This document shows, in pieces, positions 3,821 through 27,536 of a stretch of DNA of 64,000 bases. The DNA lies in IMG/VR virus record IMGVR_UViG_3300012347_000377, positions 1 to 64,000 of that record. The stretch is one strand, 5' to 3'. The position numbers and the translations under genes are program-made. The notes beneath the pieces were generated by a model. That model searched no databases. It was not told where the DNA came from and saw only the letters and a program-made list of their open reading frames with translations. Position 1 is the stretch's first letter; the number at the start of each line of letters is the position of its first letter. The DNA comes from a virus. Lineage: Duplodnaviria > Heunggongvirae > Uroviricota > Caudoviricetes.

Positions 3821-3992
3821 TAAAAGTATTTACATCAAGTGTAAGTCCGGACAATAATGAGGCCGGTATTGATTTTACTAAAATGATTGAATTGTGGATA
3901 AGCGGATTAGCAACTAAAATACAAATTAAAAACATACATACCAATTCAAATGAATATGGTTGGATGGTTATTATTCACTACGAATTATGGTA
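3816..3992 (+). CDS. hypothetical small protein (58 aa)
   Basis: ATGA overlap with upstream stop; not in supplied track (<60 aa). Confidence 0.3.
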
Positions 3993-4181
3993 AGAACTAA
4001 AGAATGGATTTGTAAAGTTATCGGTCACAAGTATTCCTATAACTTTGGATGGATGCCTAATAAGTGTGAGTGTAAACGCTGTGGCATGAAATGGAAAACT
4101 ATTAAGAACCCAGAATATATTCCTGGTAAGTCTAATCCAATTGAAACTGATTTATATAGTTGGATTGAAGATAATTCCTAA
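3986..4181 (+). CDS. small Cys-containing protein (CxC...CxxC, zinc-ribbon-like)
   Basis: ORF 3960-4181 trimmed to ATG overlapping upstream stop; KCECKRCG motif. Confidence 0.35.
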
Positions 4182-4185
4182 AACA

Positions 4186-4219
4186 TTTGGAAATATCAAA
4201 AATTATTTGTATATTTACA
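4186..4219 (+). promoter_or_regulatory. phage promoter, Bacteroidota sigma-A type (-33 TTTG / -7 TAtaTTTA)
   Basis: atttggaaatatcaaaaattatttgtatatttacat; member of family recurring about 23 times. Confidence 0.55.
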
Positions 4220-4241
4220 TATCGAATTAAAAAAACAGATT

Positions 4242-4451
4242 ATGGCAAGAAAAGAAATTTCATTTAGAATACCGGGAATCAATTGGATAATCGGATTGGT
4301 GATAGCAATGATTGGATATACCATTCACAATAGTATATTTTGGGCAATTATGGATTATATCTTTTGGCCTTTTGCAGTAGTTAAATGGTTAATCTGTCAT
4401 GAAGTTAATTTAACAATTATAAAACAGACCTTTGATTGGTTCTTAAAATAA
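4242..4451 (+). CDS. small membrane protein
   Basis: Hydrophobic 69-aa ORF. Confidence 0.4.
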   Translation: MARKEISFRIPGINWIIGLVIAMIGYTIHNSIFWAIMDYIFWPFAVVKWLICHEVNLTIIKQTFDWFLK

Positions 4452-4464
4452 AAAAAAGAAAATT

Positions 4465-4722
4465 ATGAAAAAAGTATTATTAGGATTATTGGGAATTATG
4501 ATGTTAGTATCTTGTACTGAAAACACGCGTGCAAGAGTATGGGGTGGAACACAAACTCTTCAGTTAGAAGAAGGAGTTAGATTAGTAAATGTAACTTGGA
4601 AAGAAGGTTCAGATTTATGGATTCTTACAAAAAAGGATACTACTAAAGCATCAACATATTCATTTAGTGAAAAATCAAATTTGGGTGTGATGGAAGGACA
4701 AGTAATCATTATAGAAAAATAA
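4465..4722 (+). CDS. putative lipoprotein (85 aa)
   Basis: Signal peptide with lipobox-like LVSCTEN. Confidence 0.45.
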   Translation: MKKVLLGLLGIMMLVSCTENTRARVWGGTQTLQLEEGVRLVNVTWKEGSDLWILTKKDTTKASTYSFSEKSNLGVMEGQVIIIEK

Positions 4723-4732
4723 AATAAAAGTT

Positions 4733-5380
4733 ATGGCTATTAAATTAAACGCAGAAAGTTGGCATTATAAGTTATTCAAAAAAGAATTACCATACACCGA
4801 ACCACCACGAACACTTTGTCCATATTTTTGGATATTAGTTGGGTTGTGTATTGCTACTCCATTTTTAGCAATTGGTAGAGGAATTGATTCAATAACTACA
4901 AAAGCAACATCATTAATTCCGAAAAAACCAAAGGTTGAAAAATCAGCCGAAGAATGGTTAAAAGAATGGGATGAGAAGGACAGACGGAGAGAAATTAAAC
5001 TAATTAGAATGGAAAAGATTGGTAAGTTTTTTGGTAAAGTGTTTATGTATGGAATCGTGCCAATATGTTTAATTTTATTATTATATGGTATGTTTACCGA
5101 GTTTCAAAAAATTGGTTGGTATAATTCGTTAATCGGAGTAGGTGTATGTATCTTAATTGCACTATTCATAGTTGGATTTTTTCACTTAATTGGATTCCTT
5201 TTTGAACGATATTCAACTAAAGTAGGAAATGCTATTGTTAAATTTTCAATATTCATTTTTACACCGATAAAATGGATTGGGTGGATGATTAAAGCAGGAT
5301 ATGAAAAAGCATGTCCTTTAGTAGAATGGGAAGGTGATGTGTATAAAGAACGTAAGAGAGAATACAATCAGTTTGATTAG
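4733..5380 (+). CDS. integral membrane protein (215 aa)
   Basis: Several hydrophobic helices. Confidence 0.5.
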   Translation: MAIKLNAESWHYKLFKKELPYTEPPRTLCPYFWILVGLCIATPFLAIGRGIDSITTKATSLIPKKPKVEKSAEEWLKEWDEKDRRREIKLIRMEKIGKFFGKVFMYGIVPICLILLLYGMFTEFQKIGWYNSLIGVGVCILIALFIVGFFHLIGFLFERYSTKVGNAIVKFSIFIFTPIKWIGWMIKAGYEKACPLVEWEGDVYKERKREYNQFD

Positions 5381-5392
5381 ATAATCAATATT

Positions 5393-5686
5393 ATGAGTAT
5401 AACATTTGGAGGTGAGCATTTAACAATAAAAGGTAGCACGAAAGCTACAATCAAACGTTCGATTGAAATAGTTGGAACTAATTCAGTATTACCAATTGAA
5501 ATAATTGGTGATTTCAAAGATATTCCACCACATTTACATCAAATGTATATAGAATCAATGATAGCATCGTATGGTAGTGTGGATGTGTATGATAATACTG
5601 AACCAGAACCTAAAACAATTGAAGAGCAAAAGAGTGAGTGGAGATGGAATAGAATAGTTGATATAATTGGTAAAGCAATAAGATGA
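5393..5686 (+). CDS. hypothetical protein (97 aa)
   Basis: ORF; ATGA overlap with next gene. Confidence 0.45.
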   Translation: MSITFGGEHLTIKGSTKATIKRSIEIVGTNSVLPIEIIGDFKDIPPHLHQMYIESMIASYGSVDVYDNTEPEPKTIEEQKSEWRWNRIVDIIGKAIR

Positions 5687-6066
5687 AAGAATTAATATTA
5701 GTTAGAGGATTGCCGGGAAGTGGTAAATCAACATTTGCATCAATCCTAAGTGGGTGGGTGTTAGAAGCAGATATGTATTTTATACAAGATGGAAAATACA
5801 AATTTGATGCATCTAAATTATCAGAAGCACATAAGTGGTGTAGAAATGAATGTTTGAATTATATGAAATCTGAAAAACCTAAGATTATCGTTTCAAACAC
5901 ATTTACCCAACAATGGGAAATGGATGCGTATATGGGTATGGCTAAAGAATATGGTTATAGAGTTCATACTGTCATTGTAGAAAACAGACACGATGGTGTA
6001 AATATCCACAATGTACCAGAAGATAAGTTAGAACAAATGGCTAATCGTTTTGAAATTCAATTATAG
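5683..6066 (+). CDS. P-loop kinase, polynucleotide-kinase-like (kinase domain only)
   Basis: N-terminal Walker A LVRGLPGSGKSTFA resembling T4 Pnk kinase domain. Confidence 0.55.
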   Translation: MKELILVRGLPGSGKSTFASILSGWVLEADMYFIQDGKYKFDASKLSEAHKWCRNECLNYMKSEKPKIIVSNTFTQQWEMDAYMGMAKEYGYRVHTVIVENRHDGVNIHNVPEDKLEQMANRFEIQL

Positions 6067-6630: not shown

Positions 6631-7028
6631 ACCCACAATTAGAAGCATTAAAGAAACATTTGGAATCCGATGAGGGAAAAGCATCTATGAAACGATTCGT
6701 TGAAAAGATGGTTAGAGAAGCTGAGGTTAGACAACGATGGGTTGAAAAGATTCATACCTACTATGGAAATGATATTGATTCACTAACTGAAAAACTAATG
6801 GGTAAATATTATTCAGATGTTTATAGAGATAGAGAATACGATAAATGTCATTGTGAGCCAAGAGAACCCCTATTATGGCTATTGATGGAATACGCTGAAA
6901 CATATGGTGAGGAATGCAACGATGAAAACTACTTTAATGATTTCACCGGAGATGCATACTACTTAGGTTCATATGTAATTCAAACAATGCACGGACAGGG
7001 TTCGGTAATTAGAATAGATAAAAAATAA
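6621..7028 (+). CDS. hypothetical protein (135 aa)
   Basis: ORF overlapping upstream stop. Confidence 0.45.
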   Translation: MVMNPQLEALKKHLESDEGKASMKRFVEKMVREAEVRQRWVEKIHTYYGNDIDSLTEKLMGKYYSDVYRDREYDKCHCEPREPLLWLLMEYAETYGEECNDENYFNDFTGDAYYLGSYVIQTMHGQGSVIRIDKK

Positions 7029-7172
7029 ATTATGGAAAATAGTAAATTATCAATAATTACAAATACCATCTTTAATGTTGCATTAGTTGCAGGTATTGTA
7101 TATCTAGCATCTAATAATTCGGATGGCTGGGGATGGTTGATATTAATATTACTTTTAAAAGAATGTTAAAAT

Positions 7173-7736
7173 ATGGGATTCACAATACCAACTCCACCTA
7201 TTAGTTTCAAGTCAAATAACGATAATAAAATGGAACACATTGAACAACATCACTTTGTAAAGAAAAGTGAGAAACAAGCAGTAAATAAACATCAACCCAA
7301 AGAAGAGCCAAGTCAAGTTCAATCTCAAAGTTCTGATGTTGAAACAATAACTTTTCATAACACCCAACCAACCAGTAGTTATAATCCATATACATTTCAA
7401 ACGGAAACATCATATACTGGTTTAGGGGAAGCAATTGCAAATGGAAAGGATTCCGATTTAGTAGCAGTATCAGTTGGAGAAATTAGAAAACTACATGAAC
7501 GGATTAGGGTGTTGGAAGAAGAAGTTATGAAATCAACTAGAATCACATCTTCAAACACATCTCACAAACAAAAGGTATTAGATGCGGAGAGGGCTAGAAT
7601 CGAAATGAACTACGAAACACATAAGAAACTAACAGAATTAAAAAAGGCTGAAATTATTAAACAGACCGAATTAAAAAGGTCTGAAGCTTTACAACGTATG
7701 CAATCTTCAAAGTTCGATGGGATATTTAATCGATAA
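7173..7736 (+). CDS. hypothetical coiled-coil protein (187 aa)
   Basis: ORF, charged heptad-like C-terminus. Confidence 0.45.
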   Translation: MGFTIPTPPISFKSNNDNKMEHIEQHHFVKKSEKQAVNKHQPKEEPSQVQSQSSDVETITFHNTQPTSSYNPYTFQTETSYTGLGEAIANGKDSDLVAVSVGEIRKLHERIRVLEEEVMKSTRITSSNTSHKQKVLDAERARIEMNYETHKKLTELKKAEIIKQTELKRSEALQRMQSSKFDGIFNR

Positions 7737-7766
7737 AAACATTTTACCTTTAACTAAATGATAATT

Positions 7767-7797
7767 AATGAGTTATGAAAATAACTCATTTTTTATT
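7767..7797 (+). terminator. rho-independent terminator
   Basis: AATGAGTTAT-gaaa-ATAACTCATT followed by TTTTT. Confidence 0.6.
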
Positions 7798-7827
7798 TGG
7801 AAATATCAAAAATAAGTTGTATATTAG
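7796..7827 (+). promoter_or_regulatory. phage promoter (TTTG ... TAtaTTAG variant)
   Basis: atttggaaatatcaaaaataagttgtatattagc. Confidence 0.5.
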
Positions 7828-7842
7828 CTTTATAAAAACAAT

Positions 7843-8700
7843 ATGAATATGACACGTTTATTATTAAATCTTACTGATGTTGAAAAATCAGACATCGCAT
7901 TTAAAATTTCTTATTTTCCAGATGGCCAGCAATCCATCTCAATTGAACCAGTCGGTTCTACTCCTACAATTCGAATTCAATCACGATTAAATTCATTCAG
8001 AGATGTTGAATTAATTATTTGTGCTAACCAATCTCTTAAAGAAATGGGTGCTAAAGATATTGAATTATATGTTCCATATTTTTTAGGTTCTAGAAGTGAT
8101 AGAAAATTTGGTGAAGGTCAAACTAACTATCTTAAAAATGTTATTTCTCCAATTATTAATTCACAAGGATTTTCAAAAGTTATTACATTAGACCCACATA
8201 GTGATGTATTGGAGGCATGTTTAAACAACTACGAGAAAGAAGATAATTTCAAATTAGTAGAATATGCAATCGAACAATTGGGTAAGAAAGAAAACTTAGT
8301 TTTAGTATCACCCGATGCAGGAGCATTTAAGAAAATATTTGAAGTTGGTAAAGAATTCCAAATTGAGAACATTATTACTGCAAGTAAAGTTCGTGATATA
8401 AAAACAGGTGATATTGTGAGTACGAGTATTCCAATGTTAAGTAGAAACAATCGTTTTAAGTATGTAATCATCGATGATATTTGTGATGGTGGCAGAACGT
8501 TTATCGAACTTGCAAAGGCTATTAAAGAACAACGTGAAGGTGTTGAAATTTATTTGGTTGTAACTCATGGAATATTCTCAGCAGGATTTACTGAATTAAC
8601 TAAATACTTTAATGGTATTTTCTGCACTAATAGTTATAGAAATGTTTTAGATGATGAGTATGGAGTTAAAACCAAAACAAAACAAATAAATGTATATTAA
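7843..8700 (+). CDS. prs: ribose-phosphate pyrophosphokinase family protein (Prs-like; possibly ADP-ribose pyrophosphokinase of an NAD+ reconstitution pathway)
   Basis: VPYFLGSRSDRK, VSPDAGAF, IIDDICDGGRTF (PRPP-binding), VTHGIFS align to Prs motifs. Confidence 0.8.
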   Translation: MNMTRLLLNLTDVEKSDIAFKISYFPDGQQSISIEPVGSTPTIRIQSRLNSFRDVELIICANQSLKEMGAKDIELYVPYFLGSRSDRKFGEGQTNYLKNVISPIINSQGFSKVITLDPHSDVLEACLNNYEKEDNFKLVEYAIEQLGKKENLVLVSPDAGAFKKIFEVGKEFQIENIITASKVRDIKTGDIVSTSIPMLSRNNRFKYVIIDDICDGGRTFIELAKAIKEQREGVEIYLVVTHGIFSAGFTELTKYFNGIFCTNSYRNVLDDEYGVKTKTKQINVY

Positions 8701-8701
8701 T

Positions 8702-9127
8702 ATGGAAAACGTAGATGAATATTTAGAAACTGGTAAATCATTACGAAGATTAATCGATGAATATACCAAGTATGGTTCATTATGTATTGGATATGATTTT
8801 GATGGAACGGTCTATGATTATCACCAAACCGGTGCAAAGTATGATCAAGTAATTGATTTACTACAAGACCTTAAGGTAATGAATTGTAAATTGATTTGTT
8901 GGACAGCACAAAATGATTTAGAATTTGTTGAGAAATTTTTAACGGAAAATAGCATACCATTTGATGGGATAAATACCGATGGTATTAACTTAGGTTGGGA
9001 AAGTAGAAAACCATTCTTCTCAGCACTTTTAGATGATAGAGCTGGATTGAAACAAGTCTATGAAGACCTTCGTATGTTAGTGACTTTATTTAAAATACCT
9101 ACCGATAAATTTGGAAATCCAAAATAA
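8702..9127 (+). CDS. small HAD-like protein (DFDGT motif)
   Basis: ORF 8690-9127 trimmed to ATG after Prs stop; YDFDGTVYDYH. Confidence 0.35.
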   Translation: MENVDEYLETGKSLRRLIDEYTKYGSLCIGYDFDGTVYDYHQTGAKYDQVIDLLQDLKVMNCKLICWTAQNDLEFVEKFLTENSIPFDGINTDGINLGWESRKPFFSALLDDRAGLKQVYEDLRMLVTLFKIPTDKFGNPK

Positions 9128-9141
9128 AAGTTGTATATTAG
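9110..9141 (+). promoter_or_regulatory. phage promoter overlapping end of upstream gene
   Basis: atttggaaatccaaaataaaagttgtatattagc. Confidence 0.45.
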
Positions 9142-9171
9142 CTTTATAATTAACAGATAAACAATAAAACT

Positions 9172-10650
9172 ATGAATCCATTATTATTAACCGATGGTTA
9201 TAAGACAGGTCATCACCAACAATACCCAGAGGGAACAACGTTGGTTTATTCAAATTTCACACCCCGCAGTAACAAATATGCACCAACGGGTTGTGATAAT
9301 GTAGTATCGTTTGGTCAACAAATGATTATGAAACAAATTCACGAGGCATTTCAAAATGAATTCTTCTCTAAACCAAAAGAAGAAGTTTGTGGTGAAATGA
9401 AACGTGAGTTAAGTTTGTATTTGGGAACTGATTATGATGTTTCTCATTTTGAAGCATTACATGATTTGGGTTATTTACCAATCATTGTAAAAGGTATTGA
9501 AGAAGGAACATTAGTTCCAATGAGAGTACCAGTATTAACAATCTATAATACATTACCGGAATTTTATTGGGTTACAAATTATTTAGAAACAATCATTTCT
9601 AACTTATTATGGAAACCAATGACATCTGCTACTATTGCTCATACCTATCGTAAGGTATTAACTAAATGGCAAGAAAAAACCGATGCTGAAAAAGGTTGGT
9701 TTGTTGATTGGCAAGGACATGACTTCTCAATGAGAGGAATGGATTCAGTTGAAGCTACAATCGCTAGTGGATTAGGACACTTAACATCATTTAGTGGAAC
9801 TGATAGTTTACCTGCTATTTACGGAGCAAGAAAGTTCTATGGTGAAGAAGGATTCGTTGGAGGTTCGGTAAACGCAACCGAACATAGTGTAATGTGTGCT
9901 GGTTCTAAAGATGATGAAGTTGGAACATTCCGCAGATTGTTAGAAACATATCCAAAAGGTATTTTATCAGTTGTAAGTGATACTTGGGATTTATGGAAAG
10001 TATGCACCGAACATATCGTTACTCTTAAAGAAGAAATCTTAGCAAGAGATGGTAAGTTGGTAATCAGACCTGATAGTGGTGACCCCGTAGATATTCTTTG
10101 TGGATTAGCAAACACCGACAGAGCGGCTAAAGGAGATTCTCATGATAATGCAAACGCAGCTTATAAAGGAGTTATTGAATTACTTTGGGACGTGTTTGGT
10201 GGAACAATCAACGAACAAGGTTACAAAGTATTAGATTCTCACATTGGAGCAATTTATGGTGATAGTATCACAATTGATAGAGCTGATGAGATTTGTAGAA
10301 GATTGGAAGCAAAAGGTTTCGCATCTACAAACGTTGTATTAGGTATTGGTTCATTCACATATCAGTATAACACGAGAGATACATTTGGATTCGCTATGAA
10401 AGCAACCTATGTTGAAGTAAATGGTGAAGGTAGAGAAATCTTCAAAGACCCTATTACTGATGATGGTGTTAAGAAATCAGCCAAAGGTTTATTAAGAGTT
10501 GCGGGAGATGAAACCCATATGTTATTAGAAGACCAATGTACGTGGGAACATGAAACAACTGGTAAATTACAAACCATTTATAAGAATGGTGAGTTTTATA
10601 ATGAAACTACTTTAACTAAAATCAAAGAGAAAATTAAAACAAATAAATAA
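9172..10650 (+). CDS. nadV: nicotinamide phosphoribosyltransferase family protein (NAMPT/NadV-like)
   Basis: N-terminus MNPLLLTDGYKTGHHQQYPEGT... matches NAMPT family start (..ATDSYKVTHYKQYPP..); 492 aa. Confidence 0.8.
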   Translation: MNPLLLTDGYKTGHHQQYPEGTTLVYSNFTPRSNKYAPTGCDNVVSFGQQMIMKQIHEAFQNEFFSKPKEEVCGEMKRELSLYLGTDYDVSHFEALHDLGYLPIIVKGIEEGTLVPMRVPVLTIYNTLPEFYWVTNYLETIISNLLWKPMTSATIAHTYRKVLTKWQEKTDAEKGWFVDWQGHDFSMRGMDSVEATIASGLGHLTSFSGTDSLPAIYGARKFYGEEGFVGGSVNATEHSVMCAGSKDDEVGTFRRLLETYPKGILSVVSDTWDLWKVCTEHIVTLKEEILARDGKLVIRPDSGDPVDILCGLANTDRAAKGDSHDNANAAYKGVIELLWDVFGGTINEQGYKVLDSHIGAIYGDSITIDRADEICRRLEAKGFASTNVVLGIGSFTYQYNTRDTFGFAMKATYVEVNGEGREIFKDPITDDGVKKSAKGLLRVAGDETHMLLEDQCTWEHETTGKLQTIYKNGEFYNETTLTKIKEKIKTNK

Positions 10651-10670
10651 TAATTAAAACACAAAAAAAA

Positions 10671-12545
10671 ATGTTACAAACAATTTTAGGTTACTCATGG
10701 ATATTAATTCCAGTATTAGCATTGGTATTTTACAAATTCATTCTAAGAGTGGTATTTGGTATGGTGATTATTCCAGAAAATAAAATCGGATTAATTACTA
10801 AGAAGTTCGTTTTATTCGGTGCAAACAAATCGTTACCCGATGGAAAGATTATCGCATTGAATGGTGAGCCGGGTTACCAAGCTCAAACTCTTGCTCCTGG
10901 TTTATATTGGGGATATTGGATTTGGCAGTATTCAATTGACCAAGCTAATTTAACGGTTATTGAAAAAGGTAGAATTGGTTTATTATCCGCAAAGGATGGT
11001 GCACAATTACCAACCGGGGCAATCTTAGCTCGTCATATCGAATGTGATAATTTCCAAGATACAAAAGCATTCTTATTAAATGGTGGACAAAGAGGTAAGC
11101 AAGTAAACTATTTGAACAACGGAGTTTATCGTATTAATCCATTCTTATTTGATGTTGCAACTGCTGATATTACAAACATTGAAGATGGGCAAGTTGGTAT
11201 TATTACTGCATTAGATGGAACACCATTGGATAGTGGGAATATTGCGGGAACAACTATTGAAGGACATAATAACTTTCAGGACTTTGATAAGTTCTTAGCA
11301 AATGGTGGACAGAGAGGTTTACAAACACAAGTAGTTCAAGCCGGTAACTATTCATTTAACCCGTGGGCTATTCAAGTGGAGAAAGTAGATATGACTCAAA
11401 TTCCTATTGGACACGTTGGTGTTATTATTTCATATGTTGGTAAAGAGGGTAAAGATACTTCGGGTACAACTTTCAAACATGGTAATATCGTAGGTAAAGG
11501 TGAGAAGGGTGTTTGTGGTGTTCCATTAGACCCAGGTAAATATGCAATCAATCCTTATACTCATAAGATTGAAGTTGTTCCAACTACTAACTTAGTATTG
11601 AATTGGGCAAACGCAAGAAGTGAATCACATAATTTAGATAAAGGATTGAGCACGATTACTGTCCGTTCAAAAGATGGTTTCCCATTCAACTTAGATGTAT
11701 CACAAATTATTCACATTCCTGCAACTGAAGCACCAAAGGTAATTGCACGATTCGGTTCAATGCAGAACTTAGTTTCACAAGTATTAGAACCAACGATTGG
11801 AAACTATTTCCGTAACTCGGCACAAGATAGTGATGTAATCGCGTTCTTATCAACTCGTCAGATGAGACAAGATGCAGCGAAAGTATCCATCTCTAAAGTG
11901 TTAGATGAATATAACGTTCACGCAGTAGATACATTGATTGGTGATATTAACCCACCAGAATCATTAATGAAAACTCTTACTGATAGAAAGATTGCACAAG
12001 AAGAAGAGGTTACATTTGAAACACAACGTAAAGCACAAGACCAACGTAAAACATTGGAATCTGCTAAGGCGTTAGCGGATATGCAAGGACAGATGGTAGC
12101 AGCACAACAATCGGTAGAAATTTCCGAAAGAGAAGCACAGGCATCGGTTAAACGTTCCGAAGGTGAGGCTAAAGCAATTGAGTTAAAAGCAACTGCACAA
12201 GCAAACGCGAAGAAAGTAACTGCTTCTGCAGATGCAGCACAAATCGAATTAGTAGGTGCCGCGGAAGCAACGAAGATTGAAGCAATTGGTAAATCAACCG
12301 CTGAGGCGTATAAGTTACAAGTTGATGCTATGGGTGGTGATAATTTCGCTAAGTTTAAAATTACCGAAGAGATTGGTAAGAACGGAATTAAAATTATTCC
12401 AGAAATCTTAATCAATGGTAATGGTAATGGTTCACCGATTGATGGATTATTAGGAATGGAATTGTTAAAACAAATTCAGGACAAAAAAGATATTCAATCA
12501 ATTGTAGAAACAACAACTGAACCTACATCCAAAAAAAGTAAATAA
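10671..12545 (+). CDS. flotillin/SPFH (band 7) family membrane protein, YqiK-like
   Basis: N-terminal TM helix, repeated NGGQRG...INPF segments, C-terminal Ala/Glu-rich flotillin-type region. Confidence 0.55.
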   Translation: MLQTILGYSWILIPVLALVFYKFILRVVFGMVIIPENKIGLITKKFVLFGANKSLPDGKIIALNGEPGYQAQTLAPGLYWGYWIWQYSIDQANLTVIEKGRIGLLSAKDGAQLPTGAILARHIECDNFQDTKAFLLNGGQRGKQVNYLNNGVYRINPFLFDVATADITNIEDGQVGIITALDGTPLDSGNIAGTTIEGHNNFQDFDKFLANGGQRGLQTQVVQAGNYSFNPWAIQVEKVDMTQIPIGHVGVIISYVGKEGKDTSGTTFKHGNIVGKGEKGVCGVPLDPGKYAINPYTHKIEVVPTTNLVLNWANARSESHNLDKGLSTITVRSKDGFPFNLDVSQIIHIPATEAPKVIARFGSMQNLVSQVLEPTIGNYFRNSAQDSDVIAFLSTRQMRQDAAKVSISKVLDEYNVHAVDTLIGDINPPESLMKTLTDRKIAQEEEVTFETQRKAQDQRKTLESAKALADMQGQMVAAQQSVEISEREAQASVKRSEGEAKAIELKATAQANAKKVTASADAAQIELVGAAEATKIEAIGKSTAEAYKLQVDAMGGDNFAKFKITEEIGKNGIKIIPEILINGNGNGSPIDGLLGMELLKQIQDKKDIQSIVETTTEPTSKKSK

Positions 12546-12548
12546 AAT

Positions 12549-13025
12549 ATGGCATTAGTATTAAAGCCAGGTATGGTAGGGACGGGAGCAATCTCGTCCC
12601 CATCTGTATTTTTAGCAGGTTCTATTGAAATGGGAGTTGCTGAAAATTGGCAAGAAAGAATTGAAAGAGAATTTTCAGATGAAGAACTAACATTCTTTAA
12701 TCCTCGCAGAGATGATTGGGATAGTAGTTGGTCACAAACTGGAGAACAATTTAACACACAAGTAAATTGGGAATTAAATGCATTAGATGATTCAGATATT
12801 ATCTTTATGTATTTTTCACCCGAAACTAAATCACCAATTTCTTTATTAGAATTGGGATTATATGCAGATTCACAAAAAATGATTGTAGTTTGTCCAGATG
12901 GATTTTGGAGAAAGGGTAATGTGAGTGTGGTGTGTACAAGAAATAATATACCAATGTTTAATACAATCGAAGAGGGTATATTTGCATTAAGAACATCTGT
13001 TAGAAAAAATCAAAAATTATATTAG
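12549..13025 (+). CDS. nucleoside 2-deoxyribosyltransferase-like Rossmann protein
   Basis: VFLAGS..., ...SLLELGLY... pattern reminiscent of the NDT-like family; weak. Confidence 0.3.
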   Translation: MALVLKPGMVGTGAISSPSVFLAGSIEMGVAENWQERIEREFSDEELTFFNPRRDDWDSSWSQTGEQFNTQVNWELNALDDSDIIFMYFSPETKSPISLLELGLYADSQKMIVVCPDGFWRKGNVSVVCTRNNIPMFNTIEEGIFALRTSVRKNQKLY

Positions 13026-13053
13026 GATATATCAAAAATATTTTGTATATTTG
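13021..13053 (+). promoter_or_regulatory. phage promoter (attagg variant of -33, -7 TATATTTG)
   Basis: attaggatatatcaaaaatattttgtatatttg. Confidence 0.45.
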
Positions 13054-13079
13054 TAATATAAATTAATAAGATATAAAAG

Positions 13080-13526
13080 ATGAATGATAAAATTGTAGGA
13101 TTTACGTGTAGCACATTTGATTTACTTCATACTGGTCATATTTTGATGTTAGAAGAAGCTAAATCTCAATGTGATTATTTAATTTGTGGATTACAGATAG
13201 ACCCAACGGTAGATAGACCTCAAAAGAATTCACCGGTTCAATCGTATTACGAACGTTTTATTCAATTGAGTGCAGTTAAATATGTGGATGCAATTATACC
13301 ATATACGACCGAAGAAGAATTGATGACAATATTACAAACAAACGATATTGATATTAGAATATTGGGTGATGAGTATGAAAGAAAACTATTCACTGGTTCT
13401 AATTTAGATATGGATTATTACTTTAATAAACGAACTCACAATTATAGCACAACCGAATTACGAAAACGAGTTGCATTAAAGGAATCTCAATTAGGAGGAA
13501 GTGAAACTGATAATACTAAACAATAA
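13080..13526 (+). CDS. cytidylyltransferase-like nucleotidyltransferase (HxGH); candidate NMN adenylyltransferase
   Basis: GFTCSTFDLLHTGHILMLEEAK is the (T/H)xGH nucleotidyltransferase signature. Confidence 0.5.
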   Translation: MNDKIVGFTCSTFDLLHTGHILMLEEAKSQCDYLICGLQIDPTVDRPQKNSPVQSYYERFIQLSAVKYVDAIIPYTTEEELMTILQTNDIDIRILGDEYERKLFTGSNLDMDYYFNKRTHNYSTTELRKRVALKESQLGGSETDNTKQ

Positions 13527-13532
13527 TAAGAA

Positions 13533-14672
13533 ATGGAAAACTTAAATTCAGTTTGCTACGTAGCAACGATTAATGAAATCAAACCAATCGAAGGTGCTGA
13601 CAACATCGAACTTGTAATAGCAGGTGGATGGAATGCAATCACAAAGAAAGGTGAATTTAAAGTAGGTGATACAACCATCATCGCAACTACTGATGCAGTT
13701 ATACCAGAATCACTTTCCGAAGAAATGGGAGTTACAAACTATCTTCGTAAAGGTAATAGAGTTAGGACTGTGAAGTTAAGAGGTGTATATTCAGAATGTT
13801 TGATTATACCAAAGCAGTATCTAATGGGTAATGTGACAATGGGTGATTATGATTTGGGTGAAGGTAGTGATTGTATGGAGTTCTTAGGGATTACTAAATT
13901 CGAACCACCAGTTAAGATGGTTCAATTAGCAAGTGGTAAAAAGATTCGTTATCAAGATAATCCAAACTTTCATGTCTATTATAAGTTTCCTAACTTAAAG
14001 AATGTACCTGATATGTTTACTAACAATGATTTAGTAGAAATCACTCGTAAGATACATGGAACTAATGCTCGATATGGTATTGTTAAAAAGAACAAATTAT
14101 CATTATTTGATAAGCTTAAGAAATTCTTTGGATTTGCCGATAAGTGGATTGATTACGAATTCGTAGTTGGTTCTCATAACGTAGAGAAAGGTTCAGACTC
14201 CAATGGGTTCTATGATACTAATGTTTGGTATGAAATTGAAAAGAAATACAACATCAAACAAAAATTATGGGATTACGTTAAAAATGAAAACGTTTATATT
14301 GGTGATGGTATTACCTTATATGGTGAGATTTACGGAGCGGGAATCCAAAAGGGATATGAGTATGGGTTAAAAGATATTGAGTTCGTAGGATTCGATGTAA
14401 AGGAGTGTGGTGAGTATTTAAGTACCTACAATGCTTGGAGGGTAATTAAAAATGAATTAGAATTACCTTATGTTGAAATTTTACACTTCGGTGATTGGTC
14501 ACAAGAAATACAAGATTCTTTTGTATTTAATAACTTTATCGAAGGAACAAAAGTTCCACATGAAGGAATTGTAATCAAATACCACACAGGTGAAAGACCA
14601 AAGATTGCTAAGGTAATCAACCCTGATTATTTAATCTTTGCAGAAAAACACAATGTGGGGGATTCCCATTAA
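13533..14672 (+). CDS. ATP-dependent RNA ligase, Rnl2-like, with extra N-terminal domain
   Basis: Motif I KIHGTN, motif IV EGIVIK, motif V IAKVIN in canonical order. Confidence 0.65.
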   Translation: MENLNSVCYVATINEIKPIEGADNIELVIAGGWNAITKKGEFKVGDTTIIATTDAVIPESLSEEMGVTNYLRKGNRVRTVKLRGVYSECLIIPKQYLMGNVTMGDYDLGEGSDCMEFLGITKFEPPVKMVQLASGKKIRYQDNPNFHVYYKFPNLKNVPDMFTNNDLVEITRKIHGTNARYGIVKKNKLSLFDKLKKFFGFADKWIDYEFVVGSHNVEKGSDSNGFYDTNVWYEIEKKYNIKQKLWDYVKNENVYIGDGITLYGEIYGAGIQKGYEYGLKDIEFVGFDVKECGEYLSTYNAWRVIKNELELPYVEILHFGDWSQEIQDSFVFNNFIEGTKVPHEGIVIKYHTGERPKIAKVINPDYLIFAEKHNVGDSH

Positions 14673-14686
14673 TAATTAAAACAATT

Positions 14687-15094
14687 ATGAAACAGAGAAT
14701 TTATTTAGATGATGTTAGAACTCCCGTTGGAGATGGATGGACAATAGTTAGAAACTATGACCAATTCATATCTACCATTCAATATATTGGATTAGAAAAT
14801 ATTGAACTAATATCATTAGACCACGATTTGGGAGATTCGGCAATGAAAGAATGGCATTATGGTGTGACTAAAAATTATGCTATTAACTATGACAACATTA
14901 CAGAAAAGACTGGAATGGATTGCACCAAATGGTTAGTTAATCAATGGTTAGATGGACAACCGGTAGTGGATGTAGTAGTCCATTCAGCAAACGCAATTGG
15001 TTCTGCTAATATGATGGGGTATATAAACAATTATAGACATTTGAATAGACTACCACAAAATTGTGTAAGAGTTCAAATAGAACATACCGTTTAA
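14687..15094 (+). CDS. hypothetical protein (135 aa)
   Basis: ORF. Confidence 0.45.
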   Translation: MKQRIYLDDVRTPVGDGWTIVRNYDQFISTIQYIGLENIELISLDHDLGDSAMKEWHYGVTKNYAINYDNITEKTGMDCTKWLVNQWLDGQPVVDVVVHSANAIGSANMMGYINNYRHLNRLPQNCVRVQIEHTV

Positions 15095-15102
15095 AAATTA
15101 CG

Positions 15103-15261
15103 ATGATGATGTTTATTACAATGTTAGTTATACTTTTTTTATGGCTTGCATATGCAGGATGGTCTGCACCTCTTATGAGAGAAAACAAAGATGGAAGTTG
15201 GACAACGATTCAACCACAAAAACGATTTAAAGATTTATTTAAAAAATCTAAAAAGAAATAA
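15103..15261 (+). CDS. small membrane protein (52 aa)
   Basis: ORF 15061-15261 trimmed to ATGATGATG start; hydrophobic. Confidence 0.3.
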   Translation: MMMFITMLVILFLWLAYAGWSAPLMRENKDGSWTTIQPQKRFKDLFKKSKKK

Positions 15262-15539
15262 TGAATAATCAATATAAAATATATAGACAATCTTATTTGG
15301 ATGAATATGGTGTAGAGAGTTCAATATCATATTATATCAGAGAACGTAAAAACTTTTTAGGTATTTCATATTGGAAATCTATAAAACATGAGGTATGTGG
15401 ATATGGTGATTGCTATAATGTGAGAACCCAATTTAAATCAGTAGAAGAAGCCGAAACCTTTGTTAAGGAAAAACTTTGCACAAAGATTGGTAAGGATAAG
15501 TGGGTAGAGAAAGAAGTAAAACAATTAAGTTGTAATTAA
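15261..15539 (+). CDS. hypothetical protein (92 aa)
   Basis: ORF. Confidence 0.45.
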   Translation: MNNQYKIYRQSYLDEYGVESSISYYIRERKNFLGISYWKSIKHEVCGYGDCYNVRTQFKSVEEAETFVKEKLCTKIGKDKWVEKEVKQLSCN

Positions 15540-15540
15540 A

Positions 15541-16122
15541 ATGAAAGTAATATTTTTAGACCACGATGGTGTTATATGTTTAGCAACTGAATGGGGTGGT
15601 AGATTTAAGAAACAAACTGAAGTGGGTAGAAAATTATCCCAATCAGTTACGTCTTTACCCACCGATGCACGTTTTGATAATTTCAATAAAAAAGCAATTG
15701 TAATATTAAATGAAATATTAGAAGAAACTAACGCTGAGATTGTTGTATCATCTGATTGGAAAAGATGGGCAAGTGTTGAGGAGATGGGTGAATATTATGA
15801 ATCACAAGGAATCAAAAAGAAACCAATAGCATTTACCAAAAATTTAAGTGAGTGTGATGTACCTGAAAATTTCGTATGGTCACGTAAATGGGATTTGGAA
15901 CAAACTCGCTCGTTAGAAATTAATCAATACCTTAGAGATAATCCAAGTATTACTCATTGGGTTGCAGTAGATGATTTGAATATGGGAATACCTCAAACAC
16001 ATGAATCGTGGGGTGATATGGAAATGGATTGGGGATTAACTAACTTTGTTCTAACACCGAGAAGTAGAGAAGGAATTAAACAAAGTGGTATTAAAGAAAA
16101 AATATTAGAATTTCTAAAATAA
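15541..16122 (+). CDS. HAD-superfamily phosphatase
   Basis: Motif I FLDHDGVI at N-terminus, VAVDD near C-terminus. Confidence 0.5.
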   Translation: MKVIFLDHDGVICLATEWGGRFKKQTEVGRKLSQSVTSLPTDARFDNFNKKAIVILNEILEETNAEIVVSSDWKRWASVEEMGEYYESQGIKKKPIAFTKNLSECDVPENFVWSRKWDLEQTRSLEINQYLRDNPSITHWVAVDDLNMGIPQTHESWGDMEMDWGLTNFVLTPRSREGIKQSGIKEKILEFLK

Positions 16123-16126
16123 TATT

Positions 16127-16897
16127 ATGCCGGAATTAGCAGAACTACGTCTTACCGCAGATTATATCAATCAAACTGCAAAGGGTAAAATTTTTCATAG
16201 TGTAAGAAAGAATCCAACTCACAAATGTCCTGAAATATCGGAAGAGTTGGATTTTCCTTTTACCATTAAAGCAGAAAGTAAAGGTAAAGAATTGATGCTT
16301 GAAATTACGCCACAACTAATGGATGGTGAAAAAAAATACTTAATGATGACAATGGGTATGAGTGGTCATTTCAAATGGTTAGTAGAAGGAACTACTCATA
16401 AACATGCACATTTAATATTTAATTCTGATGGAGGTTCTTTGGCTTTTGTAGATGTTAGAAGATTTGGTAAATGGAAATGGGGAAGTTGGGGTAATGATAG
16501 AGGACCAGACCCTACCACCGATTTTCAAAACTTTATTCGTAATATTAAAAATAACCTACATAAGAACGATTTTAATAAACCAATATGTGAAGTTCTGATG
16601 AATCAAAAATACTTCAATGGTATTGGTAATTATTTGAGAGCAGAAATATTATATAGAGTTAATGTAAATCCATTTATTCCAGCAAGAGAAGCATTAACAT
16701 CTCATTCTGAAATTTATGAATTATGTAGATGGGCACCATTACAAGCTTATAAATTAGGGGGTGGTGTAGTTGAATCATATAGACAAATGTTGAATAGTTG
16801 GGAAGAATTCATTCTATGTTATAATCGACCAAATATGAGTAAAGTGAAAGATAAAAATGGAAGAACATTTTGGTATGATAAAAAATGGGATATTTAA
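16127..16897 (+). CDS. nei: Fpg/Nei-family DNA glycosylase (endonuclease VIII-like)
   Basis: N-terminal MPELAEL (catalytic Pro2/Glu3); H2TH motif NGIGNYLRAEILYRV. Confidence 0.75.
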   Translation: MPELAELRLTADYINQTAKGKIFHSVRKNPTHKCPEISEELDFPFTIKAESKGKELMLEITPQLMDGEKKYLMMTMGMSGHFKWLVEGTTHKHAHLIFNSDGGSLAFVDVRRFGKWKWGSWGNDRGPDPTTDFQNFIRNIKNNLHKNDFNKPICEVLMNQKYFNGIGNYLRAEILYRVNVNPFIPAREALTSHSEIYELCRWAPLQAYKLGGGVVESYRQMLNSWEEFILCYNRPNMSKVKDKNGRTFWYDKKWDI

Positions 16898-16910
16898 TAA
16901 AAAAGGAATT

Positions 16911-17471
16911 ATGATAAAATTAAAAGATTTAATAACCGAAAAGAAAACTGGTTATGATTACGGATGTGTAATGTTATATTTTACACCAAACGAAGATGTA
17001 GTTAAATTTCAAAATCAAATATCACCATCTGATTTGTATATTGCAGAAGATAATGGTGGATATGGAATTGAAGATGAAGCACATTGCACCTTATTGTATG
17101 GATTACATGAAGAAGTTAAGTTAGAAACGATTTCACAAATATTGAATAGAATTCAATTTGGAGAATGTAAAATTCATAACCCATCTCTTTTTGAAAACGA
17201 AAAGTTTGATGTTCTTAAATTTGATGTAGGCTATCCATCCAAAGGTGGTGCGTTTTTACATAAAGCAAATACGGAATTGGTAAAACTACCAAACACTCAA
17301 ACATATCCAGATTACCACCCACATATGACAGTTGCATATTTAAAACCGGGAATGGGTAAAAAGTATGTTGATATGTTAAATGGTAAAGTAAATACGTTTA
17401 TACTTAATCCTACACACGCAGTGTATTCACAGCCGGATGGTAGTAAAACTGAAATCAAAATAAATAAGTAA
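16911..17471 (+). CDS. 2H phosphoesterase (LigT/CPDase-like)
   Basis: Two H-x-T-x motifs: HCTLL and HMTVA. Confidence 0.5.
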   Translation: MIKLKDLITEKKTGYDYGCVMLYFTPNEDVVKFQNQISPSDLYIAEDNGGYGIEDEAHCTLLYGLHEEVKLETISQILNRIQFGECKIHNPSLFENEKFDVLKFDVGYPSKGGAFLHKANTELVKLPNTQTYPDYHPHMTVAYLKPGMGKKYVDMLNGKVNTFILNPTHAVYSQPDGSKTEIKINK

Positions 17472-17741
17472 ATGAAAAAACAAATTATTATACAACTTAT
17501 TAGTTTTATTTTAACAACAATAGTTACATATGGTATTATAAAAATGTTAGAACCGAAACCTAATCAAGCAATCCAATCGAATGTATTAGAAACCGAAAGA
17601 AAAATCGATTCATTGGAAACTGAATTGTTTCAAGCACAATCTATAAATGGTAGATATGAATTATCAGTAGAACATTTATACGAAACTAATCCATCAGTTG
17701 CAAGAGAATTTGATGAATACTTTAATAATGAAACCGAATAA
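17472..17741 (+). CDS. small membrane/coiled-coil protein
   Basis: TAAATG junction; N-terminal TM helix. Confidence 0.45.
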   Translation: MKKQIIIQLISFILTTIVTYGIIKMLEPKPNQAIQSNVLETERKIDSLETELFQAQSINGRYELSVEHLYETNPSVAREFDEYFNNETE

Positions 17742-19404: not shown

Positions 19405-19423
19405 AAAAAAAATTACAAATATA

Positions 19424-19455
19424 TTTGGAATTGTAAAAATAATTTCGTATCTTTG
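19424..19455 (+). promoter_or_regulatory. phage promoter
   Basis: atttggaattgtaaaaataatttcgtatctttg. Confidence 0.55.
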
Positions 19456-27535: not shown

Positions 27536-27536
27536 T

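Follow-up and report, generated by a model that had tools for sequence, protein, structure and literature searches.

A probable NARP1-type NAD+ reconstitution operon with candidate accessory genes in a large tRNA-rich phage

The NARP1 pathway (NAD+ reconstitution pathway 1) is represented by the operons of Bas63, SPbetaL1 and Fado (bioRxiv 10.1101/2024.02.11.579819), and operons homologous to the locus described here make NAD+ from ADPR and defeat NADase defences in experiments (Osterman et al. 2024, bioRxiv 10.1101/2024.02.11.579819). Both core genes of these operons, encoding Adps (ADP-ribose pyrophosphokinase) and Namat (nicotinamide ADP-ribose transferase), occur in the same order in the window, the 64,000-nucleotide stretch of phage DNA that was analysed. 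With the Namat of NARP1 operons (structures 9W5X/9W5W, PMC12774641) the window protein shares the NAMPT fold, the catalytic core, the clamp helix, here GSFTYQYNTRD, and a Lys-Tyr clamp loop. The window differs from described NARP1 operons in the HAD phosphatase gene lying between the core genes, in the SPFH and NDT-like genes downstream, the latter linked to Namat in relatives, and in a copy of a promoter-like repeat before each core gene.

Accessory feeder enzymes have precedents in NARP1 operons, namely Adpp and RyDEP. NARP1-AP (Adps-Adpp-Namat, Vibrio phage Gary; Osterman et al. 2026, bioRxiv 10.64898/2026.01.28.702374) has the same three-gene architecture as the window, with a small phosphatase-type gene in the middle. 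Close relatives of the window locus carry a Macro gene after Adps, which in one of them (L108) lies directly between the core genes (Adps 2860-3738, Macro 3741-4256, Namat 4269-5708). However, the middle gene of the window encodes a HAD fold and not a Macro domain, and its product is therefore not homologous to Adpp. NARP2 (the Nampt NadV and the NMNAT/Nudix protein NatV of vibriophage KVP40) also rebuilds NAD+ with a NAMPT-fold enzyme, whereas in the window Adps is paired with an enzyme of Namat type.

The core of the window locus is very probably a NARP1 operon, since an Adps-type Prs homologue is accompanied by a Namat with the clamp motif. It is likely, with somewhat less assurance, that the locus as a whole represents a NARP1 operon extended by accessory genes. 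The two-enzyme core is already known; new at this locus are an undescribed HAD-type phosphatase between the NARP1 enzymes and an NDT-like gene tied to Namat. The family assignments of the genes, made from sequence, lie well past chance level. All open reading frames of the original prediction were recovered on the plus strand with unchanged coordinates (Table 1). It had correctly placed a small HAD-like gene between the Prs-like and NAMPT-like genes, but the former is not two genes upstream of the latter, as a single gene separates them; Adps lies one gene from Namat in 97% of the Adps clade (Osterman et al.). The locus is set among nucleotide- and RNA-handling genes, and the phage carrying it is large and tRNA-rich.

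Table 1. Genes and putative regulatory elements of the locus
Feature	Position	Strand	Size or remark
AT-rich hairpin GAGTTAT-gaaa-ATAACTC followed by a T-run	7770..7798	+	read from sequence
Promoter-like repeat, copy 1, TTTGGAAAT ... GTTGTATATTAGCTTTATAA	7796..7835	+	ends 8 nt before Adps ATG
Prs-like (Adps) gene	7843-8700	+	285 aa
HAD gene	8690-9127	+	145 aa
Promoter-like repeat, copy 2	9110..9149	+	overlaps HAD 3' end; ends 22 nt before Namat ATG
NAMPT-like (Namat) gene	9172-10650	+	492 aa
SPFH/Band-7 gene	10671-12545	+	624 aa
NDT-like gene	12549-13025	+	158 aa
Cytidylyltransferase-like nucleotidyltransferase gene	13080-13526	+	148 aa

Judging from its sequence, the product of the first gene is an Adps-type Prs homologue, a Prs-fold protein of the NARP1 clade. 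It matched phrog_619 (9.5e-64), and TIGR01251 with 2.8e-26 and 92 bits (cut-off 113); it fell under every curated NCBIfam Prs cut-off, far below for the Prs equivalog models, and matched the best solved Prs structure at just 6.5e-13. The identity was 35% to Bas61 Adps (152 bits) and 26% to E. coli Prs (62 bits), while a Bacillus-type Adps scored no better (58 bits) than E. coli Prs. The operon validated in Bas63 has been reported from four BASEL phages, Bas61 being one of them. The catalytic residues R84/D86, H119, K182/R184 and D211-D212 are kept. The phosphate loop reads DDICDGGRT, like that of Bas61, whereas Prs has DDMIDTGGT; the N- and C-terminal segments of Prs and its DT-x-GT loop are missing. 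The assignment to the Adps clade is based on the Bas61-type branch, the small neighbour-joining tree in which the protein clusters with Adps proteins, and the gene context.

The NAMPT-like protein matched PF04095 (1.4e-41), phrog_448 (1.2e-196) and NF006629 (2.9e-167). Its closest solved structures are PDB 9W5X/9W5W (3.4e-165), named SPbetaL1 Namat by the depositors, a protein with 56% identity to it, versus 2.5e-66 to about 1e-62 for true Nampt structures (Xcc, human). The selectivity-clamp helix motif (published Namat signature GSX-phi-X-phi-X-phi-TRD; PMC12774641) occupies residues 393-403, where F395 and Y399 are the aromatics that stack on adenine. Residues K35-Y36 of the clamp loop correspond to the Lys-Tyr variant described for Bas63, and the catalytic core is conserved throughout. 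The NARP2-type Nampt proteins of phi-pp2 (species KVP40) and PMBT1, at 31% identity, have GGGLLQ..RD in place of the Namat clamp, and alignment did not reveal the GGGLLQ motif of KVP40-type NadV, 31% identical, in the window protein. On the neighbour-joining tree the protein groups with validated Namat, apart from KVP40-type NadV. A tblastn search against phage records returned two identity groups, one of 36-57% that includes known NARP1 carriers, and one of about 26-32% of nadV type. By these sequence characters the enzyme is a NAMPT-fold Namat, not Nampt. The placements of both proteins thus favour NARP1 as the form of the NAD+ reconstitution anti-defence module, built of Adps and Namat, that had been proposed for this locus.

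By homology to validated enzymes, Adps would convert ADP-ribose and ATP into ADPR-PP, and Namat would join ADPR-PP with nicotinamide to yield NAD+. The anti-defence phenotype expected of such a locus would consist in restoring the NAD+ pool after its destruction by Thoeris, DSR, SIR2-HerA, SEFIR and similar NADase effectors.

The gene between them encodes, according to its sequence and predicted HAD-fold structure, a capless (C0) HAD-superfamily phosphatase, with all four catalytic motifs (DFDGT, T72, K107 and DD115-116) invariant. Its sequence identity to small capless HAD phosphatases, namely the BT_0820 family, V. cholerae 1XPJ, the T4 and Clostridium Pnkp 3'-phosphatase domains and the phage AfhF D-arabinose-1,5-diphosphate phosphatase 9IQW, is 12-20%. 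No curated model reached its threshold with this protein, and no match was found to Pfam or PADLOC models. We know of no role in NAD+ or ADPR metabolism for any of the phosphatases compared.

The HAD gene had been regarded as a bystander, but comparative evidence links it to the pathway. If the HAD gene starts at the ATG at 8690, it overlaps the stop codon of Adps (8698-8700); if it starts at the ATG at 8702, it abuts it. Pattern-seeded scans, each covering the best 80 loci, revealed Namat within 6 kb of the HAD gene in 62 of 80 viral loci and Adps in 61 (51 and 50, respectively, of 66 clusters after de-replication). The linkage holds over three gene orders and 32 to 84% identity: Adps-HAD-Namat in 22 de-replicated clusters, Adps-Namat-HAD in six, including Bacillus phage Megatron gp67-66-65, and Namat-HAD-Adps in five. 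In locus L026 a HAD gene with 58% identity is start/stop-coupled to a NARP2-type pair, a NadM-type NMNAT+Nudix gene followed by Nampt, which ties the HAD family to NAD+ rebuilding generally. The slot after Adps, filled here by HAD, holds a Macro gene in close relatives, and the two were never found together in one NARP1 locus: among NDT-seeded clusters, 9 have HAD, 20 Macro, 13 neither and none both (Fisher p=0.0015).

Thus, the HAD enzyme probably acts in or for NAD+ reconstitution, most likely as an accessory "feeder" that would dephosphorylate a breakdown product of NAD+ and let it enter the pathway. The favoured substrate would be ADPR-1''-phosphate, which RES-type phosphorolysis of NAD+ yields, a specific assignment that we make only tentatively; 2'-phospho-ADPR or NADP-derived species, or ribose-1,5-bisphosphate, are the alternatives.

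One could also suppose that the HAD protein is a general (deoxy)nucleotide phosphatase travelling with the nucleotide-metabolism region, or an independent anti-defence enzyme destroying a nucleotide trigger, and that it adjoins NARP1 through clustering in an anti-defence island. Such a trigger could be m6dAMP, which activates the NAD+-cleaving Metis system and is removed by the documented host HAD phosphatase MisB; however, MisB is a PF13419 HAD with a cap, and the window protein is capless. For roughly one in four HAD loci, no NARP1 lies within 6 kb. In some of these (L013 and L020) the HAD homologues lie beside thymidylate synthase or dUTPase/RuvC genes, and the family may therefore be one of broader nucleotide phosphatases. 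In another two (L028 and L030) a Macro gene immediately follows HAD, so HAD and Macro are not strictly redundant. Relatives' loci also gather NADAR, ADP-ribosylglycohydrolase and DUF1937 genes in an island-like manner. Against these observations stand the exact Adps-HAD-Namat position with stop/start overlap in the 22 clusters, its persistence across gene orders, the mutual exclusion with Macro after Adps and the coupling to a NARP2-type pair, which together make a role outside the pathway rather unlikely.

Ordinary auxiliary metabolism, in which phage Prs and Nampt raise the supply of PRPP and NMN for making nucleotides and NAD+ during replication without relation to immunity, was the standard annotation before 2024. 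It agrees with the database names of homologues ("ribose-phosphate pyrophosphokinase" and "nicotinamide phosphoribosyl transferase") and with the nucleotide- and RNA-handling genes around the locus. However, the sub-threshold Prs scores, the missing Prs segments and loop, the Namat-specific adenine clamp and the experiments on homologous operons make it very improbable.

The original prediction considered the locus compatible with both NARP1 and NARP2, and the downstream nucleotidyltransferase a possible NMN adenylyltransferase. Under a NARP2 or hybrid scheme, the Prs-like protein would supply PRPP, the NAMPT-like protein would make NMN, and the nucleotidyltransferase would adenylate NMN to NAD+. 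The last protein does share the HxGH nucleotidyltransferase fold with NMNATs (PF01467, 8.2e-15), its gene follows the NAMPT-like gene at a distance of 2.4 kb downstream, and Namat enzymes keep some PRPP activity in vitro. However, it scored only 17.5 bits with NadD (cut-off 112) and 15.9 bits with NadR (cut-off 201), compared with 70.9 bits for TagD and 62.6 bits for RfaE-II; its PDB matches were ethanolamine-phosphate cytidylyltransferase (ECT, 9.4e-20), glycerol-3-phosphate cytidylyltransferase TagD (4.1e-17) and CCT, with no NMNAT at E<0.01. It has neither a Nudix domain nor a GRFQPxHxGH motif, L026 providing a real NadM-type example. The gene was found in 0 of 80 and 0 of 79 related loci (159 in total), and its phage homologues do not lie beside NAD genes. 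By sequence the protein is placed in the TagD/ECT cytidylyltransferase group, not among NMN adenylyltransferases. No NMNAT/Nudix protein was found among the ORFs scanned in the 64 kb, where this protein was the sole HxGH nucleotidyltransferase examined. With the Namat clamp present in the NAMPT-like protein, GGGLLQ absent from it, and no phage carrying both pathways found by Osterman et al., a NARP2 or hybrid scheme is extremely unlikely.

The NDT-like gene downstream of the NARP1 core encodes a putative NDT/DNPH1-like nucleotide N-glycosidase. It matched PF15891 with 3.2e-34 and 117.9 bits (cut-off 30) and PDB 4MCJ with 1.6e-24, and its AF2 model (pLDDT 87.5) gave Foldseek matches to 4MCJ, YtoQ, the hmCMP N-glycosidase MilB and NDTs. 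The fold, the catalytic Glu in an ELG motif (Glu101 in LLELG, invariant) and the N-terminal G-S-I loop are common to the NDT/DNPH1/MilB superfamily, whose solved member closest to the window protein, 4MCJ, is uncharacterised. This gene, too, had been taken for a bystander, but Namat is its neighbour in most relatives: it lies within 6 kb in 42 of 50 de-replicated loci, and the two genes are less than 700 nt apart in 36 of 51 clusters containing both, with the SPFH gene alone between them in nine more. Many NDT-seeded loci are relatives 54-86% identical, so that shared synteny inflates this association, and the distant NDT-like genes of Caulobacter, Xanthomonas and Alishewanella phages do not adjoin NARP1. 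A literature search found no published link of the family to NARP1 or Namat. We give even chances to a functional coupling with Namat, in which the NDT-like enzyme might serve as a second accessory, probably an N-glycosidase with a nucleotide or a compound derived from NAD as its substrate.

The SPFH gene encodes a membrane-anchored SPFH/Band-7 protein (PF01145, 3e-27). Nine de-replicated relatives have it inserted at the same place, after Namat and before the NDT-like gene, and it is present in 11 of 50 NDT-seeded clusters; its membership of the NARP1 module is uncertain.

The hairpin upstream of the locus has only two G-C pairs, for which reason it falls short of the terminator-scan criteria, and, being weak, is tentatively assigned as a terminator closing the upstream gene. 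A 20-mer of the promoter-like repeat occurs six times on the plus strand, with 0.05 occurrences expected. Two of these copies, at 7816 and 9130, immediately precede the start codons of Adps and Namat, suggesting a promoter role and shared regulation of the two genes; the remaining four are located at 33551, 40948, 42821 and 55915.

All six open reading frames of the original prediction, which had proposed a NAD+ reconstitution module at 7843-13526, are present on the + strand at the positions listed in the table, and profile scans upheld their labels as Prs-like, NAMPT-like, SPFH, NDT-like and cytidylyltransferase-like genes. By gene identity, motifs and context, the core of the locus is a clear member of the known system NARP1, in which Adps and Namat rebuild NAD+ from ADPR via ADPR-PP; its enzyme activity and rescue from NAD+-depleting defence are predictions from sequence.

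Positions of the genes and repeats in the window and of related-phage loci (L numbers denote related viral loci)
Feature	Sequence	Position	Remarks
Adps (Prs-like)	window	7843-8700	+ strand
HAD	window	8690-9127	+ strand
Namat (NAMPT-like)	window	9172-10650	+ strand
SPFH/Band-7 (flotillin-like) protein, 624 aa	window	10671-12545	+ strand; PF01145 3e-27; hydrophobic N-terminal stretch
NDT-like protein	window	12549-13025	+ strand
Nucleotidyltransferase	window	13080-13526	+ strand
RNA-repair-type gene set	window	5683-6066, 13533-14672, 14687-15094, 15541-16122, 16857-17471	
Fpg/Nei-like DNA glycosylase	window	16127-16897	Fapy_DNA_glyco, H2TH and Neil1 DNA-binding domains
Copies of GTTGTATATTAGCTTTATAA	window	7816, 9130, 33551, 40948, 42821, 55915	+ strand
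26 tRNA genes and a tmRNA gene	window	19030-30272	dense array
tmRNA gene	window	19030-19404	tag peptide AEEKSSFTFADAMAFVGADLAVAA
B12-binding radical SAM protein, 609 aa	window	31643-33472	
Tryptophan-halogenase-like flavoprotein, 413 aa	window	47112-48353	PF04820 2.8e-88
Adps, Macro, Namat	L108	2860-3738, 3741-4256, 4269-5708	Poa1p-like Macro directly between core genes
NADAR gene	L146	3933-4406	
DUF1937 gene	L144	5636-5989	
ADP-ribosylglycohydrolase gene	L025	5241-6008	
Thg1-like gene	L128	2261-3202	
Namat, two proteins of ~250 aa, Adps	L001	4811-9020	the two proteins are paralogous and have no Pfam match

Placement of the Prs-like protein assigned it to Adps and not to housekeeping Prs. It matched phrog_619 (9.5e-64) in the profile scan and scored below all NCBIfam cut-offs for Prs (92 bits versus 113 for TIGR01251, and 78 versus 297 for PRK01259), and the closest solved Prs structure was found at 6.5e-13. 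Sequence identity was 35% (152 bits) to the Adps of the BASEL phage EmilieFrey (Bas61), versus 26% (62 bits) to E. coli Prs; four BASEL phages are reported to share the two-gene operon that was validated in Bas63 (Osterman et al., bioRxiv 10.1101/2024.02.11.579819). Catalytic residues of pyrophosphokinases (RxDR, DxH, the K-x-R loop and DD) are retained in the alignment, the N- and C-terminal segments of Prs are absent, and where Prs has the 5-phosphate loop DDM-x-DT-x-GT the protein reads DDICDGGRT, as does Bas61. On a small, distance-based neighbour-joining tree, the protein fell with phage Adps, apart from E. coli Prs and human Prs, the human sequence used showing the expected 48% identity to E. 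coli Prs. Its score against the Bacillus-type Adps branch was no higher than against E. coli Prs, and the Adps clade is a deep one. Namat occurs within ten genes of adps in 97% of this clade (Osterman et al., bioRxiv 10.1101/2024.02.11.579819); in the window it lies one gene away, starting 472 nt past the Adps stop codon.

The NAMPT-like protein (PF04095, 1.4e-41; phrog_448, 1.2e-196) was likewise placed with Namat by its best structural matches, its clamp motif and the neighbour-joining tree. Its closest solved structures are 9W5X and 9W5W (E 3.4e-165, 554 bits), deposited as SPbetaL1 Namat with nicotinamide and with NAD+ bound, versus 2.5e-66 to about 1e-60 for the structures of true Nampt (Xanthomonas, human, mouse and rat). 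Two clamp elements distinguish Namat from Nampt (PMC12774641). One is a selectivity-clamp helix, GSX-phi-X-phi-X-phi-TRD, in which aromatic side chains pack against the ADPR-PP adenine; the other is a clamp loop with Arg, or else with Lys/Tyr ahead of a stacking residue. The window protein has the helix GSFTYQYNTRD at residues 393-403, the same as in SPbetaL1, and a clamp loop that is longer than that of Nampt and carries K35-Y36, as in Bas61 and Megatron. When aligned to SPbetaL1, all mapped residues of the catalytic core are kept: D13, Y15, F189, R192, D215, the catalytic His region, R306, D308 and G360-D361 correspond to D8, Y10, F185, R188, D211, A235 (with the adjoining ATEH retained), R299, D301 and G363-D364. 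At the clamp-motif position, the KVP40-type NadV, taken from phage phi-pp2 (species Schizotequatrovirus KVP40), has GGGLLQQLDRD and the Nampt of Klebsiella phage PMBT1 has GGGLLQEVTRD; each shares 31% identity with the window protein, and the tree places both outside the Namat group. Among 2025 phage records, the identities of NAMPT-like proteins to the window Namat form two groups, one of 36-57%, including the known NARP1 carriers ICP1 and Bas63 relatives, and one of about 26-32%, corresponding to the nadV type.

The locus had also been considered compatible with NARP2, the pathway of NadV and NMNAT; the NARP1 part of that proposal holds, while the NARP2 part fails on the low identity to KVP40-type NadV, the Namat-type clamp and the failure of the nearby nucleotidyltransferase to match NMNAT. 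The nucleotidyltransferase, which had been thought a possible NMN adenylyltransferase (PF01467, 8.2e-15), scored 70.9 bits with TagD and 62.6 with RfaE domain II, versus 17.5 with NadD (cut-off 112) and 15.9 with NadR. Among solved structures it matched the cytidylyltransferases for ethanolamine-phosphate, glycerol-3-phosphate and choline-phosphate, and no NMNAT was among the PDB matches at E<0.01. It carries neither a Nudix domain nor the NadM-type GRFQPxHxGH motif found in a real phage NMNAT+Nudix protein of a related locus, L026. It is the only HxGH nucleotidyltransferase examined in the 64-kb window, and it does not qualify as a NatV-like NMNAT (NadM-type with Nudix). The gene is predicted to encode a TagD/ECT/RfaE-II-type cytidylyl- or adenylyltransferase specific to this phage among the related loci, with homologues in 0 of 159. 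Phage homologues were found in Vibrio phages pv27 and phiKT1024 (54%), cyanophages (as 'TagD') and Streptomyces phages, the best one, in pv27, not being near NAD genes. A partnership with the adjoining RNA ligase was rejected, since no homologue of any window neighbour lies near the pv27 gene. According to Osterman et al. (bioRxiv 10.1101/2024.02.11.579819), NARP1 and NARP2 were not encountered together in any phage. NARP3 (PnuC and a NadR-like protein), which involves no Prs- or NAMPT-like genes (PMC13464706), was dismissed as no PnuC or NadR-like match was obtained among the window proteins scanned.

Against a known NARP1 core, the novelty lies in the phosphatase-type gene embedded between Adps and Namat and, less so, in the NDT-like gene linked to Namat. 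The start of the former overlaps or abuts the Adps stop codon. Its product has the four HAD motifs (DxDxT/V; S/T; K/R; DD or DxxxD) and a predicted Rossmannoid fold, which together settle the HAD fold of the modelled protein, not its substrate. Pfam gave no match for it, and NCBIfam only weak ones to BT0820 and HAD-IIIC. A contig scan with the HAD alignment returned no bacterial relative, a weak negative, as the two back-translated patterns were narrow.

The association of this family with NARP1 is frequent. Among the best 80 IMG/VR loci with a HAD homologue (32-84% identity), Namat was found within 6 kb in 62 and Adps in 61; after de-replication at 90% DNA identity, the corresponding figures were 51 and 50 of 66 clusters. 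The frequency of NARP1 across phages is about 4% (Osterman et al., bioRxiv 10.1101/2024.02.11.579819). The linkage outlasts rearrangement: the order Adps-HAD-Namat was observed in 22 clusters and the same order with an NDT-like gene in 13 more, along with Adps-Namat-HAD (6 clusters) and Namat-HAD-Adps (5). All three genes are present in the cultured Bacillus phages Megatron, W.Ph., BPS13 and other Wphvirus, as consecutive gp67 (Adps), gp66 (Namat) and gp65 (HAD) in Megatron. The family accompanies NARP2 too, as indicated by locus L026 (5998-8677), where the stop codon of a HAD gene (58% identity) overlaps the start of the gene for a NadM-type NMNAT+Nudix protein (GRFQSPYIHHGY), which forms a NARP2-type pair with the Nampt that follows. 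Certain other homologues adjoin thymidylate synthase or dUTPase. Our interpretation is that the HAD family is linked to the rebuilding of NAD+ as such, with a substrate that may differ from that of Adpp.

Adpp is the Macro-domain ADPR-1''P phosphatase that lies between Adps and Namat in NARP1-AP and acts against the RES-type defence aRES, which yields ADPR-1''P, a product unusable by plain NARP1 (bioRxiv 10.64898/2026.01.28.702374). The window resembles NARP1-AP in having a third, phosphatase-type gene inside the Adps-Namat operon but differs from it in the nature of that gene, which is a HAD rather than a Macro (PF14519, PF01661 or PF20016; Poa1p-like). No Macro profile matched the HAD protein, tblastn with Macro queries over the window was empty, and no homologues of Macro, NADAR, DUF1937 or ARH were identified in the window. 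Close relatives of the window carry a Macro gene after Adps, as in L108; the encoded Macro protein is assigned to the 'macro domain/phosphatase' family of phages. The two architectures run in parallel, Adps-[HAD or Macro]-(NADAR)-(NDT)-Namat-(SPFH)-(NDT), and no NARP1-bearing cluster contains both HAD and Macro. Clusters gathered around the NDT-like gene, and hence selected on neither, comprised 9 with HAD, 20 with Macro, 13 with neither and 0 with both (Fisher p=0.0015). Its position after Adps, as for Macro, and this mutual exclusivity suggest that the HAD may act as an ADPR-1''P phosphatase. However, in two related loci, L028 (5989-8754) and L030, Macro comes directly after HAD and NADAR and DUF1937 come further on, neither Adps nor Namat occurring within 6 kb; this looks like an ADPR-processing cluster independent of NARP1. 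This adjacency and the NARP2 coupling in L026 complicate a simple replacement of Macro by HAD.

The NARP1 loci of related phages collect various ADP-ribose-handling genes, namely those for Poa1p-like Macro, NADAR (1.5e-48), DUF1937, which we take to belong to the NDT-like superfamily, an ADP-ribosylglycohydrolase, located between Adps and HAD, and a Thg1-like protein. A ~166-aa protein with no Pfam match (L120, 1825-2328) recurs in 14 loci. The cultured phage with the closest Adps relative (43% identity) is Leptolyngbya phage Lbo-JY46 (L001), whose two paralogues may represent another accessory pair.

The NDT-like protein matched PF15891 (3.2e-34; 117.9 bits versus a cut-off of 30), and among solved structures the uncharacterised 4MCJ is the closest to it (1.6e-24). 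Foldseek with the predicted model (pLDDT 87.5) returned 4MCJ (8e-15), followed by YtoQ, the hmCMP N-glycosidase MilB and nucleoside deoxyribosyltransferases. Glu101 of the LLELG motif is invariant in alignments of 14 and of 35 sequences, as is the N-terminal FLAGSIEMG loop; by analogy with DNPH1, we presume these to be the catalytic Glu and the phosphate-binding loop. Both sequence and model thus point to a member of the NDT/DNPH1-like N-glycosidases. Namat was present within 6 kb in 66 of the best 79 viral loci with this gene (54-86% identity), and in 42 of 50 clusters after de-replication. In 36 of the 51 clusters with both genes, they lie less than 700 nt apart, the NDT-like gene being on either side, and in 9 more, as in the window, only SPFH separates them, with SPFH matches of 76-94% identity. 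More remote members, from phages of Caulobacter, Xanthomonas and Alishewanella, lack NARP1 in their vicinity. As the set of close homologues may be phylogenetically narrow, we consider the chances for and against a functional coupling to Namat to be about equal. The family has at least 8000 matches, of which the top 120 are all single-domain proteins of about 155-165 aa and gave no domain fusion as a clue to function; no literature on PF15891 was found.

One could hypothesise, tentatively and with the balance somewhat against it, that the small capless HADs are a hitherto unrecognised, non-homologous counterpart of Adpp, recruited to NARP1 and to at least one NARP2 operon, and that the NDT-like enzyme is a further feeder of the pathway. 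The HAD would convert a phosphorylated product of NAD+ breakdown into a usable substrate. Candidates, which fit NARP1 and NARP2 contexts alike, are ADPR-1''P from RES-type phosphorolysis, ribose-1,5-bisphosphate formed from ADPR-1''P through Nudix cleavage, 2'-phospho-ADPR from NADP+ or other NADP-derived species, and pyrophosphate. HADs of the Pnkp type remove 2'/3'-phosphates. The NDT-like enzyme would act on an N-glycosidic compound derived from NAD, for instance NMN or an ADPR signal in cyclic or conjugated form, and release ADPR or nicotinamide. Alternatively, the phage HAD might, by analogy, act like MisB, a host HAD phosphatase that, according to the Metis paper, strips m6dAMP, the trigger of a NAD+-cleaving effector; the phage enzyme would then destroy the nucleotide trigger. 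The proposal that the HAD feeds NAD+ reconstitution is directly testable, since cultured Bacillus phages have Adps, Namat and HAD.

NAD+ depletion is among the commonest antiviral strategies of bacteria, which phages are known to answer chiefly through NARP1. Recent work reveals an arms race over which breakdown products of NAD+ are recyclable, with ADPR-1''P made by aRES opposed by the Macro protein Adpp and cyclic ADPR signals by RyDEP. NARP1 operons are known to carry further genes, Macro being among the commonest (bioRxiv 10.64898/2026.01.28.702374); within an incomplete library, we found no literature linking NARP1 or Namat with a HAD phosphatase or an NDT-like enzyme. The HAD phosphatase and the putative NDT-like N-glycosidase emerge as two more candidate accessory families, recurring in these operons. 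If the feeder proposal is true, NAD+ reconstitution reaches defences beyond those countered by plain NARP1. Were the HAD a functional analogue of the Macro protein with which it alternates after Adps, this would be a case of convergent recruitment and would improve the prediction of which phages escape given NAD+-targeting defences; a different substrate would be a sign of an undescribed NAD+ cleavage chemistry in bacterial immunity.

A ~40-nt repeat (TTTGGAAAT...GTTGTATATTAGCTTTATAA) is located upstream of both Adps and Namat, with exact copies of its 20-nt core, GTTGTATATTAGCTTTATAA, just before the two start codons. The window contains six copies of the core versus 0.05 expected, and the repeat is probably a phage-specific class of promoter. 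The first copy is immediately preceded by a weak hairpin with a T-run. The longer gapped version had no matches, because the spacing varies among copies, and a scan of 7000-17600 for sigma-70 promoters and terminators gave fewer sites than shuffled controls.

An RNA-repair-type gene set surrounds the operon, and the same genes recur near NARP1 in relatives. It includes an AAA_33 kinase, an RNA ligase with a PHA02142 OB domain, proteins with a cREC_REC 'cyclic-phosphate processing' domain and a HAD_SAK_2 domain, and a 204-aa protein with no Pfam match, whose two HxT motifs (HCTLL and HMTVA) suggest a 2H phosphoesterase. Since ADPR-PP decays to ADPR-cyclic-phosphate, a link of cyclic-phosphate enzymes to the NARP1 pathway is conceivable. 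The nearby Fpg/Nei-like DNA glycosylase is, to our knowledge, an unusual phage gene.

PADLOC gave nothing useful for the six proteins. A megablast search with a 5.7-kb region found no match among 50,697 phage records, which thus contain no close sequenced relative of this phage. The window is AT-rich (G+C ~31%) and coding is almost wholly on the + strand. As an identical HAD protein occurs on a metagenomic contig of 288,673 bp and the nearest viral contigs measure 98-287 kb, the source is very probably a jumbo phage. The G+C content rises to 0.35-0.39 over 22-28 kb, and a tRNA-like gene at 21301-21373 was called with a four-base anticodon.
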